The notes: a model not told the origin generated them from the sequence alone. A DNA stretch of 64,000 nt from Bacteroidota bacterium (GCA_021812985.1 JAKAMG010000013.1:586-64585); one strand, 5' to 3'. Shown: positions 1-9,014, counted from the stretch's first letter. Program-made: numbers and translations.

Positions 1-2866
1 ACTTGTTAACGAATATATCGAGCCTGTGCAGCGCCGTCTCCCTGCTGTCGAGGGAATCGGTTTGCACCACAAAAAGTCCAGTCGATCTGTTGTACCTTGA
101 CTCTACTATTTGTCCCGAAAGAATCCTGGCCCACTTAGCGAACTTTGACGCCTTATCGCGTGTGTTAAACGCGCCGAGCTGGACGAGATATTTCCTGTTG
201 GAGGTTTCCGCGGAAGGCCGTGCCTCAGCGGCAGCGCTCCCGACTTTCGGATGCGGGGGCAACACCGCGCTCGGGGTCTTCAGCACCATCTTGAGCCCCT
301 CCACAAAGTCACCGTCGATGGAAGGCTTGACCGTAAAATGCAGCGACGGAGGGTCAGATACGACTTCCAGCACACGGAGCTGAGTCGGATCGACGTACGC
401 CTCGTAATCGCCTGGGGGGAGCCCCATATAGTAGAAGCTTCCGTCATTGAACACGTTCACGCTCCTGTCCTTGCCGCCGGAGAGAGATTTTATTTCAAGC
501 GTAAGACCCGCAATCGCGGACAACACGCCTCCCTGTTCCCTAAGGACGGTACCGTCGACAATTCCCCCCGCGTAAAAGGGGACATCAACCCTCTTGTATG
601 AATTCGGGTCTGTTATGAAAGAGAATGATTTCTCTTTCGGTATCCAAAGCGGATTTCTTATCGTGCTGAGGTCGACATCCGCGCTGTACTGCGTATAAGG
701 GAGGAGGTTCCAATCCCTTATAGTGCCATCTTTGGAAGTCTCGATTGAAACGGCCTGGCGCAGGTTGATCTGTCCCTCCTTTATAATCTCTTCGCCCTTG
801 TCATATCTTCCGTTCCCATTTGCATCCACAAACATCCTCATCGAAGCGGCGGAATGCCCGACCCAACCTATGTCGTTGAAGAGGAGTGTACCACTGTTGC
901 TGTCGAAGCCCACCGAACCAGACAGGTTCTCGGCATAAGTAGTTCCGGTGCTTTGAGACTGCACGTTGGTCGTGGACCGCGTGAACGGAAGGTCCGCTAT
1001 GATTTGCAGGCTTAGGCTGGTCGACCTGTTTACATAGTCTCTTTCGGCTGTAAAGGCGACCCTTATGTATTGCTGCAGATTCTTAGAGAGCTGAAAGGAC
1101 AGATCGTCGAGAGAGTTTTTCAACACGCCGTACCTTCCCGTCACATTGAGCAGAGTGCCGTTAAGGAAGCTTAGGGCATCGCTTTGGAAGAAGAGTGAGT
1201 AGAGAACGTTCCCCGAAAGGCTGTAGTTTTGAATTAGAGTTCCAGGCCCGAAATCAGTTATCGACCTCTGGTATCCTAGGGAGGCGTTCACCTGTGATAG
1301 GTCTGTCGAGAGGTAGCTTGAATATGTATATGTTCGTTCACCCCCCGCATAATCCTCGGCAGTGCCCGCTAGTCTGATATTAAAGTCGCTGCCTCCGAAC
1401 GAGAATGGCATGTAGGCGTTGGCATCGGCCTCCTGGAGTTTTCCGCCAGGGTTGTACAGTAGATTATGGTTATAACGCGAGTAAGACATGTCCCACGCTG
1501 CCTGAGAGGCGTAGAGCGCACTGAAGGTGGATTTATAATATGCCTGAGGAGCGGCATCGATGTCCATAGTATACTCTGGGCTGAATCTCAAGGAAAGCGA
1601 GTTGTAGAACAACGGCTCCCCGAAAAGAGGGTTGTCCAGATAATCCATCCCCACCTTATCGGATGCCCAGTCAAAGAGGCCGAAGTTCAGGTAGGCGGAG
1701 GCGAAATTTTGGTTAGAATTCTCAATTTTGCCAGCGCTGACAGAATATGTAACCTGACCGGCCGGGAGAAACGAGAATGGGATCTGGAGCCTTCTGTCAG
1801 ACTCATGAAACTCGCCGTTGGGCCCATAGTATTTCAATTGGACGAACGACGTGCCATAGACGATTGGTATTTTGAACTCCGCCCTTCCAAGCGAGTCAGC
1901 GGTTTTATATCCCACGAGCTGACCGTTAAGATAGAGTTCTACGTCCCAGCCGGGATTTGTCTTCGCGTCGACGGCGTACTGGCCGAATAGCGTTCGTACT
2001 GTGAGAGGTTCGTTCGAGATCTGCGCACCGCGGAAGCCGTATTGCGTGAGTCCGCCCGAGTAGAGATTGCCGAGCCCGGCATAGGTGATGATACCGGTGG
2101 AGTCGAAGGCATACTTCCAGCTGAAGGTGTTCGAGTTGATTGTCGATCCGGTCCGTGAAAGCGTGCCGTATATGTTTCCCTCGGTTTCTCCTCCGAGGAC
2201 CTCTGCGCCGCCGTCGAGCTCGTAATTATAGGTCGGCTGTCCCCCAGTACCCGTTGCGGTAAGCGAATAGTCCACTACCCCGCCGTTCAGAAGCGATCGA
2301 CTTCTCGGGTACATTAGCGGAGCCTGGATAAGATTCGTGTCTGGCGAAACAACGGCGTAATTTTTCCTGCTCTCCCTCTGATAGTCTTTCACAATCGGAA
2401 GCTCCAGATCAGTATTGAGAAAGAGCGAGAGTGAACCGAAGTCAGCTTTGAAATTAAGGCCGAATATTTCACTGATGACGGACGGAAGGAGATAGAAATC
2501 GAGCTGTCCAATAATAACCTTTGACGTGTCGAACCTGATCTTCCTTCCCCCGATCTCCGCCTCGCCCGTTCCGAAGTTGACGACATATTTCACGGATGGA
2601 GTTATGTAGAACCCAATCATGGTCCTCGCCTTGAGATCAAGCGAGTAGTCTACCCTTAACTCCTTGAACAGAGTGCCAATGGGAACATAAACGGAATCCT
2701 TGTCATACAGCGCCGTGACGACTGTATTTACAAGCCCGCTATAATTGAAAGAGAGATAAATGTCCTGAGTGTCAGGACTTCTGGAAGGCTCCTGTGCGTG
2801 CACTCCCCCCGCGAGGGAGAGCAGTACGAAGGCGGTCACTACCCAAAGAGATTTTTGTGCGCAGAT
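1..2866 (-). CDS. Large secreted/outer-membrane usher-like candidate, 3'-partial (runs off the left edge). C-terminal beta-sandwich (carboxypeptidase-regulatory-like) plus SPOR-like domain.
   Basis: Uninterrupted minus-strand frame from about 2866 to base 1 (at least 946 codons). It is missing from the ORF track because no stop lies inside the window. The N-terminus ..KSLWVVTAFVLLSLAGGVHA/QEP looks like a signal peptide. Long aromatic/polar alternating beta-strand-like stretches follow. The tail KYLVQLGAFNTRDKASKFAKWA...GLFVVQTDSLDSRETALHRL fits the SPOR pattern. The start is uncertain: GTG at 2839 or non-canonical ATC at 2866, with an in-frame TGA at 2876-2878. Confidence 0.6.
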   Translation of the reverse strand, partial: MCAQKSLWVVTAFVLLSLAGGVHAQEPSRSPDTQDIYLSFNYSGLVNTVVTALYDKDSVYVPIGTLFKELRVDYSLDLKARTMIGFYITPSVKYVVNFGTGEAEIGGRKIRFDTSKVIIGQLDFYLLPSVISEIFGLNFKADFGSLSLFLNTDLELPIVKDYQRESRKNYAVVSPDTNLIQAPLMYPRSRSLLNGGVVDYSLTATGTGGQPTYNYELDGGAEVLGGETEGNIYGTLSRTGSTINSNTFSWKYAFDSTGIITYAGLGNLYSGGLTQYGFRGAQISNEPLTVRTLFGQYAVDAKTNPGWDVELYLNGQLVGYKTADSLGRAEFKIPIVYGTSFVQLKYYGPNGEFHESDRRLQIPFSFLPAGQVTYSVSAGKIENSNQNFASAYLNFGLFDWASDKVGMDYLDNPLFGEPLFYNSLSLRFSPEYTMDIDAAPQAYYKSTFSALYASQAAWDMSYSRYNHNLLYNPGGKLQEADANAYMPFSFGGSDFNIRLAGTAEDYAGGERTYTYSSYLSTDLSQVNASLGYQRSITDFGPGTLIQNYSLSGNVLYSLFFQSDALSFLNGTLLNVTGRYGVLKNSLDDLSFQLSKNLQQYIRVAFTAERDYVNRSTSLSLQIIADLPFTRSTTNVQSQSTGTTYAENLSGSVGFDSNSGTLLFNDIGWVGHSAASMRMFVDANGNGRYDKGEEIIKEGQINLRQAVSIETSKDGTIRDWNLLPYTQYSADVDLSTIRNPLWIPKEKSFSFITDPNSYKRVDVPFYAGGIVDGTVLREQGGVLSAIAGLTLEIKSLSGGKDRSVNVFNDGSFYYMGLPPGDYEAYVDPTQLRVLEVVSDPPSLHFTVKPSIDGDFVEGLKMVLKTPSAVLPPHPKVGSAAAEARPSAETSNRKYLVQLGAFNTRDKASKFAKWARILSGQIVESRYNRSTGLFVVQTDSLDSRETALHRLDIFVNK

Positions 2867-2946
2867 TTCTAACTCTCACGTGTTTCTTATTTCTGACCTC
2901 AGGCTACCAATCTGAGCCCCGATGACGAGGAGCCTGAAGCGTCACC

Positions 2947-3768
2947 TTACTGGACCACGAAGCTCAGTTTCTTTTCGACCGCCGGAACCTTGAGCAAATC
3001 ATTGGCGGTGATATCGCTTCTCTCCGACACCAGCGTGATTTCAGCAGTGTATGTTCCGCTTCGAAGCTTGGAAAGGGGAACAGCAAACTTCACCATCATC
3101 GTGTCGGGATAGATTGCCACTATTTCGCCGCCACTATAGACTGTGTTCCCCGCGCGGTCAACGACAGAGCCGACCATCTTGCCGAAATACGGAGAATTGC
3201 CCCCACGCAGCACCTTGGCAAGAATAACAACTGAAGACGAGTCGGTCATCGAACTGATTTCGGGTATCTCCACGGAAGTGTTGACATAACCCTTCTTGTA
3301 AATAACCGTGGTCACTTGCTGAAGTACGAACGTGATGTTCGCCGTTATGCCTGTCTTCACCGTGTCAATGGTCTGCGCCTGAGGAGTAGAACTTGTCACC
3401 AGCCTTGTCCAGTATTCACCGTCCGGTATTCCCTGCGGAGCGGTCACGAGGAGACGGACGACCTGTTGTTGGCCGGGATTAATGATGAACTTCTCCGGGA
3501 ATCCCCTTAGCCAGGTCTGACAGGAATGCTTCGCCGCCATCAGGCTGTCATTGTACTGCATCGTTATGTTCCCGAGAGAATCTGATTCAGGATAACCAAA
3601 CTTGAAAGATATGCTTATTTCCTGCGGAGTGTTCGACCTGTTCAACACAATGAAAGTTCCGAAACGGGACTGATCGCTCATGAAGAGAAGCGTCGGTGCC
3701 ACAATGACCTGTGCCCGTGCCACCAAGACAGACACAAGTACCAGAAACAGAGGGAGTGTCTTTTTCAT
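2947..3768 (-). CDS. Periplasmic fimbrial chaperone-like protein (PapD-like Ig fold candidate)
   Basis: Signal peptide MKKTLPLFLVLVSVLVARAQ. The N-terminal domain pattern APTLLFMSDQSRFGTFIVLNRSNTPQEISISF ... FPEKFIINPGQQQVVRLLV ... EYWTRLV resembles the pilus chaperone N-domain signature. It sits between a fimbrial-subunit-like gene and a large OM protein. Confidence 0.5.
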   Translation of the reverse strand: MKKTLPLFLVLVSVLVARAQVIVAPTLLFMSDQSRFGTFIVLNRSNTPQEISISFKFGYPESDSLGNITMQYNDSLMAAKHSCQTWLRGFPEKFIINPGQQQVVRLLVTAPQGIPDGEYWTRLVTSSTPQAQTIDTVKTGITANITFVLQQVTTVIYKKGYVNTSVEIPEISSMTDSSSVVILAKVLRGGNSPYFGKMVGSVVDRAGNTVYSGGEIVAIYPDTMMVKFAVPLSKLRSGTYTAEITLVSERSDITANDLLKVPAVEKKLSFVVQ

Positions 3769-3865
3769 GGACGTAATTTAACCAATTATAAGTTAGCTCC
3801 AAAAGTGCCGACGGCAGACCCGGCCCTACTGGACTTAAACCAAACGGAGGCGTGGAGCGAAGACA

Positions 3866-3900
3866 TCAAAAAAAGGCCTGGCAGTTTGCGCCAGGCCTTT
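3866..3900 (-). terminator. Rho-independent terminator/attenuator between the subunit and chaperone genes
   Basis: The minus strand reads AAAGGCCTGGC-GCAAACT-GCCAGGCCTTT followed by a run of T (7 T in total). It lies 60 nt after the stop of the 3960-4451 gene. Confidence 0.65.
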
Positions 3901-3959
3901 CTCACATCGATCCCGCCAATTGCAGTGGGCTCACAGCCGAAAAGCAGAGTGCCGTACAG

Positions 3960-4451
3960 CTAATAGCTCACGGTAAGAGTGAATGTAGCTGTATAGGTAC
4001 CCGGTGTGGTGCTGTTAGATATTCCGCTTACTGTACCGCCAACCCAGAAATAATAGTCTCCCGTTGTCGCGTCAAGGGAAACGGTGGAATTGCTGCTAAC
4101 GCTTGTCGAAGACCCCTGCGTATTCGTGTTAAGTCCGTAGAGCGCGGGGGCATAGGTCAAGCTGCTTGACGGCGGATTTGCTGAGCTGTATGTCACGGTA
4201 ATCGTGTGACTCGTATCGCCATTCACTATGAACGTGCCAGCGGACTGCCCGGCAGTGGGACTATTAGGGGTCAGCGTTATGCTACCAACTCCCGCATACG
4301 TGGAGCCAAAGCTACCGTTAGTAGAACTGGTGATGGTCAGTCCCTTGTAGACACTAAGGCTCATATTCACGGTCTGAGTCCCCGACTGTTGCGCTAGCGA
4401 CATTCCCGAAAAGCCGAGGATCAACGCCGCCGCAAAAAGTAATTTCTTCAT
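3960..4451 (-). CDS. Secreted DUF4402 / spore-coat-U (SCPU)-like fimbrial subunit candidate
   Basis: Start taken at the internal ATG at 4451, which has an AGGAGAG RBS 6 nt upstream. Signal peptide MKKLLFAAALILGFSGMSLAQQ. The mature part is Cys-free and very Thr/Ser/Gly-rich. The C-terminus ..GDYYFWVGGTVSGISNSTTPGTYTATFTLTVSY matches the family ending G.Y.g.f.vtv.Y as I recall it. Confidence 0.55.
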   Translation of the reverse strand: MKKLLFAAALILGFSGMSLAQQSGTQTVNMSLSVYKGLTITSSTNGSFGSTYAGVGSITLTPNSPTAGQSAGTFIVNGDTSHTITVTYSSANPPSSSLTYAPALYGLNTNTQGSSTSVSSNSTVSLDATTGDYYFWVGGTVSGISNSTTPGTYTATFTLTVSY

Positions 4452-4599
4452 TTCAACTCTCCTTTGAATCACAAACTTTGTTAAAAAAACATTCCCCCGA
4501 TGGACGCCATTTGGAACCTCTGAAGTATGTCTCTTTCTTATTCATGCCTATCTAACTATGCGACAACACTCATGCCACGGTAAAGCCAGCGTTTCAGTG

Positions 4600-4658
4600 A
4601 AAAAGAGCCTCATTTGCGACGTCCCGAAGGTCGTTTGTTACGTGGAAGTAACATGAGG
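4600..4658 (-). terminator. Compound stem-loop followed by a T-run, downstream of the GH31 gene
   Basis: On the minus strand, CCTCAT...ATGAGG encloses GTTAC-ttccac-GTAAC and is followed by CTCTTTTT. The outer stem is only 6 bp. Confidence 0.35.
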
Positions 4659-4786: not shown

Positions 4787-7186
4787 TCACTCCAGGTGAA
4801 CCGAGCGGATAAAAGGATCGTACGGAAAGACCACCTCGACAAGGTTTCCTCCGACAGACTTCACACTTCCGTTCAGTGTGCGACCATCAGAAGTCTTTGC
4901 AGTGGCCGATCTGAAGGGATGAGCAGACTCAAGCTTTATTCCCATTTCCTTGAATCCCGGCTTGAAACCGCCGCTCGACTCAAATTCCAAGTCTGCCTCG
5001 CGGGCGCCCGATTTGTACGAAACGTTGAGATTAAGGAAATCGCCATTCCTGTACGCGAGTGTCGCGCCGTCGTCAAAGTAAGCATTCCCCTTCGCCGATT
5101 TATTGCCAAACACATTGACGTAGAGAGTATCTGCCTGCTCGCTTGTTGACTGGATGAGACTTTGCGTAAAGAGGACTGTCCCTTCGCGGACGAAGGCAGG
5201 CGTTCTTCCGAGAGGAGCGTCTACGACGTGGGAACCGCCGTCGAGTGTGCTCCGGTCATCAATCCGCATCCACCTACCCGCAGGGAGGTAAACGCTTCGT
5301 TTCACGACGCCCGAGTCAAGGACAGGCGCGACAAGTATCTTGCCGCCGAACATGAACTCGTCCGAAATCGCGTACGCCTTATTGTCCTTCGGGAAGTCGA
5401 GGTAAAGCGGTCTGACTATCGGAAGGCCTGTCTTATTCGCTTCGCGGAAGGCGGTGTATATTTCGGGAAGCATCTCGTACCTTCTGCTTATCACCTCGCG
5501 GTTGATCTTCGTGTATTCAGGGCCGAAGACCCAAGGCTCACGCGGCTTTGAGTCGTTCGTGCTGTGCGTCCTGTAGAATGGCGTAAAGGCGCCAAGTTCA
5601 AGCCATCGCGTGAAGAGTTCGGGACTGGGGTTTCCCACAAAGCCTCCAACGTCGCTCCCGACGAAAGGCTGTCCGCTCACTCCGATATTCAGGAACATCG
5701 CGAGGGCGAGTCTCAGGTGGGCGAAGCTGGCGAAGTTGTCGCCGGTCCACATGGCTGCATACCTTTGACCGCCCGCGTAGTTGGCGCGCGTCAGGACGAA
5801 CGGGCGTTTATTGGGTTCGAGCCGCTCGAGGCCTTCCCTAGTTCCCCGCGCCATCTGCATTCCATAAAGGTTATGAACCTCGTAGTGTTCCACCGTGTCG
5901 CCGTCTACGTCATGAAGCACGTCCGGCGGAAAAGTCTTGTTCGGAGTATCGAATACGCTCGGCTCGTTCATGTCGTTCCAGAATCCGTCGACACCGTAGT
6001 CGACGAGAAACTTGTATTGATCTCCCCACCATTCCCTCGCCTCTTTCCTGAGAAAGTCCGGGAAGACGCAATCTCCAGGCCAGACCCTCCCGACGAAATA
6101 TTTTCCGTCAGGGGTTCTTACGAAGACGTCCTTCTTCATTCCGCTTTTGAAAACCCGGTAGCTCTTGTCGTTCTTAATGCCGGGGTCGATTATAGTCACG
6201 ACCTTGAATCCCATGTCATGGAGCGTGTCCAACATCTCCTTGGGTGTCGGAAAGTTCTTCGGGCTCCATGTGAAACACCTGTATCCGTCCATGTAGTCTA
6301 TATCTAGAAATATCACGTCACAGGGGATCTGGTTCTTCCTGAAATCGCGGGCCAGGGTCAGGACTTTTGACTCGGGATAATAACTCCAGCGCGATTGCTG
6401 GTAACCCAGAGACCAGATCGGGGGCATATGCATCTTGCCGGTCAGTTCGGCAAACTTGCGAACGATTTCCGCGGCATCCTTTCCGGTTATGATATACAGG
6501 TCAAGATCGCCCGCGCCGGCGGTGTAAGTGAATTTGCCGCTCTCCGTCGCGCCCACGTCGAACGTCGTGCGTGACGGGTTGTCAAAGAAGAGTCCATAAG
6601 CGCCGTGTGCGTCTGCCTTCAGAAGGAACGGGACACTCTCGTAAAGGGGATCGAATTTCACGCTGTAAGCAGGGAAGTCCGAGTTCCACATCGTCCAGCG
6701 CGTGCCATACCTGTTGTAAGGGAGCGTCTTCTCGCCCAGACCGTAGAAATTTTTCGCGTTGTGTATATCGAATTCCGCAGTAAGCCCCGAGTCACTGAAG
6801 GCATAATTATTTAGGTCGAGAACGTCTGCCCCGTTTTCCGAGATAAGCTTCAGCTTCCCGGTTTCGGGTGAGAAGATGACCGTCCCGTTAGGGTACGCAG
6901 CTCTCACCTCTTCCCTGCTGACCTTCATCCCGCTCCTGGAGATTTCTTCCGGAGACTCAATGACGGCAAACGATTTCAACGCATGCCCGCCCCTCTGGAT
7001 CTTGAGATGGAAAATCCCGGATTTAAACGCCTGGGCTTTCGCACTCCCGGCCTTGTAACTCGCCATCACTTCGTACCGCTCCTTCTGTAAATTTGCCAGC
7101 TTGCCCAGCGATTCAATCTTCTTTGCGGAGGCATTGCTCATTCCGAGTTGGGCGCCAAGCAGCAGAATCAATCCGTAAATTAGCAT
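4787..7186 (-). CDS. Glycoside hydrolase family 31 alpha-glucosidase/alpha-xylosidase, secreted
   Basis: 799 aa. Carries the GH31 nucleophile motif GFWNDMNEPS and an N-terminal signal peptide MLIYGLILLLGAQLGMSNASA. Confidence 0.85.
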   Translation of the reverse strand: MLIYGLILLLGAQLGMSNASAKKIESLGKLANLQKERYEVMASYKAGSAKAQAFKSGIFHLKIQRGGHALKSFAVIESPEEISRSGMKVSREEVRAAYPNGTVIFSPETGKLKLISENGADVLDLNNYAFSDSGLTAEFDIHNAKNFYGLGEKTLPYNRYGTRWTMWNSDFPAYSVKFDPLYESVPFLLKADAHGAYGLFFDNPSRTTFDVGATESGKFTYTAGAGDLDLYIITGKDAAEIVRKFAELTGKMHMPPIWSLGYQQSRWSYYPESKVLTLARDFRKNQIPCDVIFLDIDYMDGYRCFTWSPKNFPTPKEMLDTLHDMGFKVVTIIDPGIKNDKSYRVFKSGMKKDVFVRTPDGKYFVGRVWPGDCVFPDFLRKEAREWWGDQYKFLVDYGVDGFWNDMNEPSVFDTPNKTFPPDVLHDVDGDTVEHYEVHNLYGMQMARGTREGLERLEPNKRPFVLTRANYAGGQRYAAMWTGDNFASFAHLRLALAMFLNIGVSGQPFVGSDVGGFVGNPSPELFTRWLELGAFTPFYRTHSTNDSKPREPWVFGPEYTKINREVISRRYEMLPEIYTAFREANKTGLPIVRPLYLDFPKDNKAYAISDEFMFGGKILVAPVLDSGVVKRSVYLPAGRWMRIDDRSTLDGGSHVVDAPLGRTPAFVREGTVLFTQSLIQSTSEQADTLYVNVFGNKSAKGNAYFDDGATLAYRNGDFLNLNVSYKSGAREADLEFESSGGFKPGFKEMGIKLESAHPFRSATAKTSDGRTLNGSVKSVGGNLVEVVFPYDPFIRSVHLE

Positions 7187-7187
7187 C

Positions 7188-9014
7188 TCAGATCACCTTT
7201 AAGTGGAGTTCCATCAATTGTTCCCGGCTCACTTCGCTGGGGGCCTCATCCATGAGTGACATGGCGCTGCTAGTCTTCGGGAAGGCGATCACGTCGCGTA
7301 TGGATTTGCTTCCGGTGAAGAGCATTACGAGCCTGTCGAAACCGAACGCGATGCCTCCGTGGGGGGGAGCGCCGTATTTGAATGCCTCAAGGAGAAACCC
7401 AAATTTGGTCTGAGCCTCCTCGTCCGAAATTCCGAGACAACCGAACATTTTCTTCTGAAGTTCAGGCTGAAAAATCCTTATGCTTCCTCCGGCAATCTCG
7501 TTTCCGTTCCACACGAGGTCATACGCTCTGGCCCGGGCGTCGCCGACAGGGTTCTCGCTCGTCCAGCGCTTCTTCGACCTGAACTCTTCGAGCCCCTTAT
7601 CGAGTATCGCCGCGTCTTCGTCCCTCGGCGAAGTAAACGGGTGGTGCATCGCCGCGAACCGCCTCTCGTCCTCCGACCATTCAAGGAGAGGAAACTCCGT
7701 GACCCAAAGGAGGGCATCCTTTTTCGGATCTATGAGATCGAATTTTCTCGCGACCTCGAGTCTGAACTGCCCAAGCGTCGAGAAAATCTGTTTGCGTGGC
7801 TGAGTGACGATGAGAATCAGGTCCCCGGTCTCCGACGCGAAGCTCTCGCGGAGTCCCTTGAGCTGATCGTCTGAAAAATATTTGGCCGTCGGCGATTCGA
7901 GTGACCCTGCGGAAACCTTGAAATACACGAGCCCGGCAGCGCCGCAGCTCTTCGCAAGATCCGTCAGGTCGTCGATCTGCTTGCGACTGACACCCGCCTG
8001 TCCCTTCAGGTTGAAACCGCAAATGAGGTTACCGCTCTGTATGCCAGTCTCAAAAACTTTGAACTGCGAGCCCTTCAGAAGTTCAGTAACGTTGACGATC
8101 TCCAGGCCGAATCGCAGGTCCGGCTTGTCGCTGCCGTACTTTGTGATCGCCTCGTCGTAGCTCATACGTGGAAGCGGCGTTGCCACATCGACGCCACGCA
8201 CCTCCTTGAAAAGCGTCTTGACCAGCCCTTCTGCCATCGCATAGATGTCCTCTTCGAGCACGAATGACATCTCGACATCTATCTGGGTGAATTCCGGCTG
8301 GCGATCGGCCCTGAGGTCCTCGTCGCGGAAGCACTTAACGATCTGAAAGTACCGGTCGTACCCGGAGACCATCAGGATCTGTTTGTAGGTCTGGGGGGAC
8401 TGCGGAAGCGCATAGAATTTCCCGTGATGAATCCTGCTTGGGACCAGGTAGTCACGTGCTCCTTCGGGCGTACTCTTCATGAGAAAGGGGGTCTCGATCT
8501 CCAGGAAATTTAGCGAGTCGAGGTAGCGTCTGACGGTCTGTGCCATCCTGTGACGCACCAGGAGATTGCTCTGCATCTGATGCCGCCTAAGATCCAGGTA
8601 GCGGTATTTCAGCCTGAGCTCTTCGCTCGTATCGATCTCATCCTCAATCGGGAACGGGGGCGTGTCTGCCTCGTTCAGGATCGCCAGATCGTCTCCCAAG
8701 ACTTCAATCGCTCCGGTTGGGAGAGATTTATTATCGGTCCCTTCCGGTCTCCGTTCCACTTTTCCCGTCGTGGAAATCACGTCTTCGCTTCGAAGCTGCT
8801 TCGCGATCTGATAGACCGCCTGGTTGTGCTGAGGGGCAAAGACAACCTGCGTCTTTCCGTACCTGTCGCGGAGATCGATGAAGATTACTCCGCCCAAGTC
8901 ACGTCTTCCATCTACCCAGCCATTGAGGGTCACGACTTTATTGACATCTTCAGCTCTTAATTCGCCACAAGTATGCGTTCTTTTCCTGCCGCGTAATGAT
9001 ATCGTTTCGGACAT
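7188..9014 (-). CDS. aspS: Aspartate--tRNA ligase
   Basis: 608 aa. Class II aaRS motifs FRDEDLRADRQPEFTQ, AGGSIRI and PPHGGIAFGFDRLVML, with an N-terminal OB-fold region. Confidence 0.95.
   Translation of the reverse strand: MSETISLRGRKRTHTCGELRAEDVNKVVTLNGWVDGRRDLGGVIFIDLRDRYGKTQVVFAPQHNQAVYQIAKQLRSEDVISTTGKVERRPEGTDNKSLPTGAIEVLGDDLAILNEADTPPFPIEDEIDTSEELRLKYRYLDLRRHQMQSNLLVRHRMAQTVRRYLDSLNFLEIETPFLMKSTPEGARDYLVPSRIHHGKFYALPQSPQTYKQILMVSGYDRYFQIVKCFRDEDLRADRQPEFTQIDVEMSFVLEEDIYAMAEGLVKTLFKEVRGVDVATPLPRMSYDEAITKYGSDKPDLRFGLEIVNVTELLKGSQFKVFETGIQSGNLICGFNLKGQAGVSRKQIDDLTDLAKSCGAAGLVYFKVSAGSLESPTAKYFSDDQLKGLRESFASETGDLILIVTQPRKQIFSTLGQFRLEVARKFDLIDPKKDALLWVTEFPLLEWSEDERRFAAMHHPFTSPRDEDAAILDKGLEEFRSKKRWTSENPVGDARARAYDLVWNGNEIAGGSIRIFQPELQKKMFGCLGISDEEAQTKFGFLLEAFKYGAPPHGGIAFGFDRLVMLFTGSKSIRDVIAFPKTSSAMSLMDEAPSEVSREQLMELHLKVI

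Follow-up and report, generated by a model that had tools for sequence, protein, structure and literature searches.

A probable, deeply divergent chaperone-usher-type locus with a DUF4402 subunit and a SPOR-domain usher in an uncultured Kryptoniota bacterium

Pili of the chaperone-usher type are textbook adhesins, and the ushers PapC and FimD share one architecture: a 24-strand barrel, a plug between strands 6 and 7, one N-terminal periplasmic domain, and two C-terminal ones. Chaperone-usher systems with one subunit, such as Caf1, are also functional, and Caf1 forms an amorphous capsule. Here, we describe a locus that is very probably a deeply divergent chaperone-usher-type assembly or secretion system, located at positions 1–4451 on the minus strand of a 64,000-nt stretch of DNA (positions 1–64,000, hereafter the window) from an uncultured Kryptoniota bacterium. 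The locus encodes a small secreted protein of the DUF4402 family (the candidate fibre subunit), a periplasmic chaperone-like protein, and an usher-like outer-membrane protein. Chaperone-usher systems have been listed for Proteobacteria, Cyanobacteria, and Deinococcus-Thermus only, with the archaic class as the one that reaches beyond Proteobacteria; the chaperones of this class have a non-classical carboxylate anchor, with a super-conserved Arg and a Tyr in domain 2 (PMC4654587).

Gene arrangement and the usher-like protein

The locus consists of three consecutive minus-strand genes, encoding the subunit (4451–3960), the chaperone-like protein (3768–2947), and the usher-like protein (2839–2), and a check of the open reading frames (ORFs) found these genes with the places and sizes given in the initial annotation of this DNA. 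Sec signal peptides are predicted for all three proteins. No stop codon interrupts the large ORF between 2875 and base 2, and its first canonical start, a GTG at 2839, gives 946 codons, which bears out the earlier description of a gene of at least 946 aa that has no stop in the window. A protein identical over these 946 residues (P0001), with a full length of 1122 aa, is encoded on the 320-kb parent contig containing the window, and the last 176 residues of the usher-like protein therefore lie outside the window; the leftward extension proposed in the initial annotation for finding the true C-terminus has thus supplied the whole protein. Subunit, chaperone, and usher genes are clustered on one strand and in the same order in more than 40 loci, and because this order occurs independently in so many loci, it is far from a chance arrangement. 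No second such locus was found in the 64-kb window.

The full-length usher-like protein (1122 aa) was modeled with AlphaFold2 (AF2) from a 59-sequence alignment (predicted local distance difference test, pLDDT, 86.9), and its domain layout was read from the DSSP string of the model. The N-terminal periplasmic domain (residues 24–145; window 2405–2770, on the minus strand like all features given here), delimited by the strand/helix pattern of the model and weakly matching Cu_amine_oxidN1, is followed by a helix (residues 148–162) and by a predicted 24-strand transmembrane beta-barrel (residues 184–646; window 902–2290), in which strands 1–6 occupy residues 184–275 and strands 7–24 residues 363–646. 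Between strands 6 and 7 lies a plug domain, a six-strand beta-sandwich (residues 284–353; window 1781–1990). Two periplasmic beta-sandwich domains (residues 660–745 and 748–854; window 278–862), with weak matches to SdrD_B and CarboxypepD_reg, a disordered linker (residues 855–882), and three beta-alpha-beta-beta-alpha-beta units (SPOR; residues 884–1121) complete the protein, the first SPOR domain (Pfam SPOR, residues 893–950) being cut by the window edge (2–190). A plugged 24-strand barrel, which the initial annotation had suggested looking for in an AlphaFold model, is therefore present in the prediction.

The best 19 Foldseek matches of this model are all FimD or PapC structures (FimD, E = 5e-31; PapC, E = 2e-25; TM-score of the best match, 0.58, normalised to the target), and the best non-usher barrels (chitoporin, Occ porins, and LptD) follow at E values of ~1e-7 to 1e-5; no CsuD-type structure occurs among the PDB matches of the model. 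For comparison at the profile level, E. coli usher and chaperone profiles were built from six chaperone-usher operons of E. coli K-12. The usher family aligned with the E. coli usher profile in hhalign at 98.5% probability (E = 3e-15, 620 columns), and the alignment of query residues 121–817 with FimD residues 138–848 is collinear across the barrel, the plug (including the FRGAQ and V-x-L-x-x-NG motifs), and both C-terminal domains. Such comparisons are informative only with the six-operon profiles; when a single FimD or FimC sequence was the hhalign target of the family profile, the values were weak (39% and 0.3%, respectively). Direct Pfam Usher matches were obtained for four of 44 usher-family representatives (best E = 6e-8), and the window protein itself has weak Pfam matches to SPOR, CarboxypepD_reg, and Cu_amine_oxidN1. 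PF00577 is absent from the precomputed annotation of all 92 homologues of the large protein, and a search of PDB sequences with the usher profile returned domain-level matches only, plus PapC at E = 4.4. Its position suggests that the N-terminal domain may be the counterpart of the classical usher N-terminal domain, and it is presumed to be the docking site for chaperone-subunit complexes.

The chaperone-like protein and the DUF4402 subunit

The 273-aa protein carries a signal peptide and, according to a high-confidence prediction, adopts the two-domain immunoglobulin (Ig) fold of periplasmic chaperones. Its AF2 model (52-sequence alignment, pLDDT 90.8) consists of two beta-sandwich domains, and its best Foldseek matches in the PDB are, besides the protein WxLIP, PapD-type pilus chaperones, namely EcpB, CfaA, CsuC, PapD, FimC, Caf1M, and others (E ~1e-9, probability 1.00), with the best TM-scores obtained for CsuC (0.46–0.49). 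The PapD-like pattern noticed by the initial annotation is thus reflected in the modeled fold. In hhalign, the chaperone profile aligned with the E. coli chaperones over the N-terminal domain (72.5%, E = 3e-5), with strands F1 (W120) and G1 (ITFVLQQVTTVIYKK versus LAIISRIKLYYRP) in register, and the position of the classical Lys112 corresponds to Val155. Within the family alignment R122 is invariant and R105, Y220, and Y240 are near-invariant; in CsuC, the anchor residues are Arg89 and Tyr196. PapD_N is the commonest sub-threshold Pfam match among the chaperone relatives (20 of 52), and the chaperones of Polaromonas and Pseudoalteromonas, which match the family profile at ~1e-22, score above the PapD_N gathering score. 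A profile search of PDB sequences with the chaperone gave no match.

The subunit gene (163 aa) begins with an ATG, with a ribosome-binding site, AAGGAGAG, just upstream at 4464–4457, and encodes a candidate sole (major) fibre subunit. A cleavable Sec signal peptide ending in A-Q precedes a Thr/Ser-rich mature protein with the C-terminus ...GTYTATFTLTVSY. In the Pfam scan, the protein matched DUF4402 (PF14352) at 21.1 bits and E = 5e-4 (gathering score, 25.2) and gave no match to SCPU; Fimbrial (PF00419) is absent from its Pfam matches, although its profile was not compared directly with those of classical pilins. An indexed search returned seven subunit homologues in all, and homologues at 51–57% identity carry PF14352. 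DUF4402 is matched by 80 of the 87 small proteins encoded beside related chaperone-usher pairs (best E = 1.5e-25), and SCPU, the second commonest Pfam family among them, is weakly matched by four (best E = 8e-4). By transitive homology the window subunit is a member of DUF4402, falling below threshold by itself. A profile search of PDB sequences with the subunit gave no match.

An alignment of 90 related subunits reveals conserved features at both ends of the protein. The signal peptide ends in A-Q, with Q in 93% of the sequences, and positions 28, 30, 32, and 34 are hydrophobic in 88–100%, as compared with at most 10% for positions 27, 29, 31, and 33. Downstream of this alternating stretch is an L-x-F-G motif, and the C-terminus has the motif G151-x-Y153-x-G-T-F-T-L-T-V-x-Y. 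The alternating N-terminus and the G-x-Y...Y C-terminus would fit the pattern expected for a donor strand and a pilin F strand, respectively.

Several observations weigh against a chaperone-usher interpretation. No curated hidden Markov model (HMM) from Pfam or NCBIfam matched any of the three window proteins above threshold: the DUF4402 score of the subunit is below the gathering score, PapD_N reached E = 0.017 and 15.6 bits (versus 23) on the chaperone, and the usher-like protein had no match to Usher (PF00577) at E <= 1 and none to PapC_N or PapC_C. The HMM search that the initial annotation proposed with DUF4402, SCPU, PapD, and Usher was consequently successful in part, matching DUF4402 and PapD_N at sub-threshold levels only and leaving SCPU and Usher unmatched. 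The structural TM-scores are moderate (0.4–0.6), the N-terminal domain of the usher-like protein is left unaligned to that of FimD by hhalign, and a start at GTG 2839 yields a signal peptide lacking a charged N-region. The 90-sequence DUF4402 profile aligned marginally with CsuA/B in hhalign (score 18, E = 0.024, over the C-terminal strand only), a score that exceeds those of all 30 shuffles (maximum, 14.7). In addition, the Gram-positive protein WxLIP occupies ranks 1, 3, and 8 among the Foldseek matches of the chaperone model, the incomplete-Ig, donor-strand architecture of the subunit is a prediction from sequence patterns, the fibre itself is a prediction, and the close relatives all come from metagenome-assembled genomes.

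Some of these points could be taken to mean that the resemblance is one of fold only, with the large protein as a generic plugged barrel or a SPOR envelope tether and the 273-aa protein as a WxLIP- or fn3-like periplasmic protein unrelated to pilus assembly. With WxLIP as the top structural match, the chaperone fold alone is indeed not specific; the curated usher HMMs miss the window protein, and large proteins of this kind are annotated as "SPOR domain-containing" or "carboxypeptidase regulatory-like." Such an explanation is nonetheless extremely improbable, given the profile homology to ushers that runs collinearly over the barrel, plug, and C-terminal domains, the Pfam Usher matches of some family members, the insertion of the plug between strands 6 and 7 (an usher hallmark), and the strict linkage to PapD-like and pilin-like genes in more than 40 loci. 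A WxLIP-type reading of the 273-aa protein was rejected for the same reasons, being outweighed by the usher profile homology and by the linkage to pilin-like genes. The locus is homologous to chaperone-usher systems at the superfamily level, in support of the chaperone/usher-like identity first proposed for it, and lies outside the curated Usher and PapD_N families by their thresholds. None of the three outcomes that the initial annotation named as refuting its reading (a 273-aa protein lacking the chaperone Ig fold, a large protein other than a beta-barrel, and an unrelated subunit family) was obtained. The database names of the large-protein homologues are "SPOR domain-containing protein" or "hypothetical"; routine annotation would not call this locus chaperone-usher, and the family is effectively invisible to it.

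Distribution, subunit number, and proposed assembly

A scan of 185,579 species genomes with a 14-sequence alignment recovered 44 loci, all of them in metagenome-assembled genomes, with hosts belonging to Kryptoniota or "Bacteroidetes," Ignavibacteriota, Balneolales, Rhodothermales, and Kapaibacterium, and to Gemmatimonadales at 25–27% identity. Six-frame ORFs of the related loci (designated by L-numbers, with L001 the parent contig) were searched with three family profiles, and a near-universal order on one strand was found: one to seven DUF4402 genes, a chaperone gene of ~273 aa, and an usher gene. A tblastn search of plasmids located the same arrangement in cultured Proteobacteria, including plasmid 2 of Polaromonas sp. 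JS666, where PGAP names the chaperone "fimbria/pilus periplasmic chaperone" and the usher "carboxypeptidase-like regulatory domain-containing protein." The chromid of Pseudoalteromonas xiamenensis likewise has the subunit-chaperone-usher arrangement, and usher-like matches also occur in Novosphingobium and Sphingopyxis. The two cultured carriers, Polaromonas sp. JS666 (plasmid 2, BPRO_RS26565–26580) and P. xiamenensis (chromid, NI389_RS19165–19190), make the prediction directly testable. With the barrel region as query against 1.84 billion representative proteins, 1,985 clusters (50% identity) were matched at E <= 1e-3, of which 248 reached E <= 1e-30.

Distant members depart from the common gene order. 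An Ignavibacteriota locus (L039) has the order subunit, usher, subunit, chaperone, and in two Gemmatimonadales loci (L047 and L048) an extra DUF4402-like ORF is situated between chaperone and usher, or overlaps them. On a Piscirickettsia salmonis plasmid (NZ_CP039222.1, 14167–14601; L057), a lone DUF4402 gene is found amid insertion sequence elements, and the 7 kb to each side of it contain no annotated chaperone or usher. The 3.5-Mb contig bearing L023 also holds L058, which lies ~570 kb away from the SPOR-type locus and encodes, along with DUF4402 genes of its own, an usher paralogue ending in TPR (P0071), and in L037 the end of one usher gene lies directly upstream of a second complete cassette; genomes can therefore carry more than one such locus.

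At the fixed, syntenic site of the locus in Kryptoniota, the order runs from aspartyl-tRNA synthetase (AspRS) and GH31 through the subunit genes, the chaperone, and the usher to a secreted protein of 120 aa, a PAS protein, malic enzyme (on the opposite strand), and Lon, and the syntenic block spans window 4787–9014 and L001:13582–19872. Conservation of this block in Kryptoniota indicates a vertically inherited core locus and not an island. This site holds between one and seven subunit genes, and in most Kryptoniota relatives the gene directly upstream of the chaperone encodes a protein of 305–330 aa with two tandem DUF4402 domains, which, judging from its domain content, is a candidate tip protein. 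This two-domain gene is present in L005–L026 and L045 (e.g., L019:4100–5017) and absent from the window locus and from L023, which likewise has a single subunit, the smallest complement at the syntenic site. We read the single-subunit state as a lineage-specific reduction of a variable cassette and not as a property of the family. The initial annotation, in describing a single subunit gene and no recognisable tip adhesin, was thus right about the window, and what it described is, on this reading, a loss particular to this lineage.

Its count of three genes also holds for the window, and may be an undercount for the system. Approximately 210 nt past the usher stop, and outside the window, is the gene for the 120-aa secreted protein (L001:13582–13944), which is conserved in ~20 Kryptoniota loci (mature N-terminus, VTATATVTLTVV; C-terminus, ...EIDYLGS). 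The protein was compared with DUF4402 in hhalign as a possible truncated pilin of that family, and matched the N-terminal half at 62% probability, a weak match to which the signal peptide contributes. A role as a fourth component, such as an anchor or terminator subunit, is possible.

The reduced complement could also mean that the locus is a decaying remnant, which has lost its minor subunits and tip protein, has a compromised usher start, and is no longer functional. Consistent with decay, relatives at the syntenic site have two to seven subunit genes as compared with the single one here, the usher gene lacks an ATG start, with an in-frame TGA (2878–2876) 36 nt upstream, and the chaperone ORF is split in the single-subunit relative L023. 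However, the three ORFs are intact and full length, with every domain of the 1122-aa usher modeled at high confidence; a second contig encodes an identical chaperone and a 96%-identical subunit; the ribosome-binding site and terminator are intact; and single-subunit chaperone-usher systems function elsewhere. We therefore consider decay very unlikely, and a working chaperone-usher-type system remains the preferred interpretation. Ahead of the GTG, the in-frame stretch LEICAQKSLW resembles the N-terminus of a homologue, P0020 (MDRQICKRLLL). The sequence suggests either a non-canonical ATC start at 2866–2864 or the recent loss of an ancestral start.

The terminator in question, overlooked in the initial annotation, lies at 3900–3868 between the subunit and chaperone genes, and has the form of a strong intrinsic terminator or attenuator: a GC-rich hairpin followed by seven T (free energy, dG, -30.3 kcal/mol; z -4.9; 0 of 200 shuffles as stable). 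In L005, L023, and L028, a similar terminator-like hairpin comes after the first of the subunit genes, and in L021 after the second. In pap and fim biology, subunit excess is classically obtained by partial termination downstream of the major pilin gene, and by analogy, the hairpin here would give a surplus of subunit transcript over that of chaperone and usher. The "compound terminator" at 4600–4658, proposed earlier to separate the locus from GH31, does contain a hairpin and U-run; the structure is weak and statistically unremarkable (dG -15.8, z -1.55, 14 of 200 shuffles as stable) and was missed by a consensus scan.

The three C-terminal SPOR domains of the usher are further evidenced by the precomputed PF05036 assignment of P0001 and by a profile match to the CwlC SPOR structure (1x60). 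Among the 44 usher-family representatives, 12 have SPOR, two have OmpA, and two have LysM, which are three unrelated peptidoglycan-binding modules; other usher paralogues end in TPR repeats. Repeated independent acquisition of such modules argues that tethering of the usher to the wall is functionally important. In P. xiamenensis (NZ_CP099918.1, 447121–459268; L056), SPOR and TPR proteins are encoded by separate genes that flank the DUF4402-chaperone-usher operon. Split in Pseudoalteromonas and fused in Kryptoniota, the SPOR and TPR parts show the pattern expected if one partnership is served by both forms. Denuded glycan at division sites is what SPOR domains recognise, and those of the present usher probably tether the machine to peptidoglycan, possibly at such sites; given this specificity, fibre assembly might be confined to septa or new poles, which, if true, would be a form of spatial control unknown for chaperone-usher pili. 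Classical ushers do not have such domains, and we know of no described usher with a peptidoglycan-binding module. The literature search found none either, and returned nothing relevant on DUF4402 (PF14352) or on archaic systems in Bacteroidetes.

Together, these features suggest the following mechanism. The DUF4402 protein, which has a visible signal peptide, would be exported by Sec, and the predicted two-domain Ig chaperone would capture it in the periplasm, presumably by donor-strand complementation. The chaperone-subunit complex would then be delivered to the outer-membrane usher, predicted to be a plug-gated barrel, where, by analogy with known systems, the N-terminal extension of an incoming subunit would replace the chaperone strand, and the growing homopolymer would pass through the barrel, once the plug has been displaced, and reach the cell surface. 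Termination after the subunit gene may ensure that subunit transcript is in excess, and the SPOR domains may hold the usher at the peptidoglycan. One subunit, in a locus that lacks a two-domain tip protein, would give rise to a homopolymeric fibre or "polyadhesin," comparable to that of one-subunit systems such as Caf1.

Alternatively, the locus could encode an exporter derived from a chaperone-usher system whose product is not a pilus, such as a capsule- or sheath-like layer or displayed monomers, with the SPOR domains fixing the exporter in the envelope. This would be in keeping with the single Thr/Ser-rich subunit and the missing tip protein, with the amorphous capsules formed by Caf1-type one-subunit systems, and with a wall-tethered pore, which is unprecedented for pili. 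The subunit also evolves fast: seven homologues were found for it, and the nearest identity in another species is 57%, as compared with 77% for the chaperone. On the other hand, the alignment of 90 subunits shows conservation of the donor-strand-like N-terminus and of the pilin-like motif at the C-terminus, and relatives have multi-subunit cassettes with the two-domain protein, typical of tipped fibres. Furthermore, the Caf1 capsule is itself a donor-strand-linked polymer, so a non-pilus product of this kind would differ in morphology and not in mechanism. We consider it unlikely, and favour assembly by the chaperone-usher route, the product of which may have the form of a thin fibre or of a capsule-like polymer.

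These observations extend the known range of the usher fold and indicate a sizeable chaperone-usher family in phyla outside the published list (PMC4654587). DUF4402 thereby gains a concrete, testable function as a pilin, and the repeated independent fusion of ushers to peptidoglycan-binding modules constitutes a new design element. It is conceivable, though we put this forward tentatively and as the less probable outcome, that DUF4402 systems form a fourth, undescribed class of chaperone-usher systems, present in the Fibrobacteres-Chlorobi-Bacteroidetes (FCB) superphylum, Gemmatimonadota, and some Proteobacteria, in which the usher is coupled to peptidoglycan via SPOR, OmpA, or LysM.

Comparison with described systems

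Type V pili of Bacteroidota (FimA/Mfa) are donor-strand-linked fibres from the same superphylum. Their pilins, which are lipoproteins, polymerise following proteolysis and need neither chaperone nor usher. In contrast, the present subunit has a type I signal peptide and no lipobox Cys, and it is encoded next to chaperone and usher genes. A type V reading was rejected on these grounds, as there is no Cys in or after the subunit signal peptide and the chaperone and usher genes are adjacent.

The classical FimC/FimD and PapD/PapC systems share with this locus the usher domain architecture, with 98.5% collinear profile homology, and a two-domain Ig chaperone. They differ in that sequence identity is ~13%, and in that the classical chaperone Lys112 aligns with Val155. 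Yersinia pestis Caf1 (caf1M-caf1A-caf1) likewise has one chaperone, one usher, one subunit, and no tip adhesin; it is a member of the classical F1-G1 long (FGL) family, from gamma-proteobacteria, and its sequences show no detectable relationship to those of the present proteins. Unlike in Caf1, the one-subunit state in this lineage is a reduction of a multi-subunit cassette.

The archaic (sigma) Acinetobacter Csu (CsuA/B-CsuC-CsuD) and Pseudomonas CupE systems have the same layout of subunit(s), chaperone, and usher, and CsuC is the best TM-score partner of the chaperone model. CsuA/B and the subunits of the window family also share an alternating hydrophobic N-terminal strand, an early L-x-F-G, and a C-terminal G-x-Y-x-x-T-x-x-V-T-V-x-(F/Y); the parallels in CsuA/B, whose sequence was checked against PDB 7zl4, are AVTGQVDVKLNIS..., ...LNFG..., and ...GDYKDTLLVTVNF. 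A claim of homology between DUF4402 and CsuA/B was considered and rejected, the profile score of 18 being too weak. Archaic systems have SCPU subunits, whereas the present ones belong to DUF4402, with SCPU as the runner-up Pfam family only; the present usher is 200–300 aa longer than archaic ushers, and SPOR, OmpA, LysM, or TPR add-ons occur in its family. The published hosts of sigma systems do not include Kryptoniota, Ignavibacteriota, Balneolales, Rhodothermales, or Gemmatimonadota (PMC4654587). The archaic (Csu/spore-coat-U) likeness put forward by the initial annotation thus stands for layout, chaperone fold, and subunit motifs and does not by itself establish class membership; since the defining subunit family is SCPU, weakly matched by four of 87 subunits, we do not file the locus under that class.

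By layout, the closest described counterpart is a one-subunit system such as Caf1, and by chaperone fold and subunit motifs, it is Csu. What is already familiar here is the type of machine; what is new is a clade of chaperone-usher systems with DUF4402 pilins and wall-anchored ushers.

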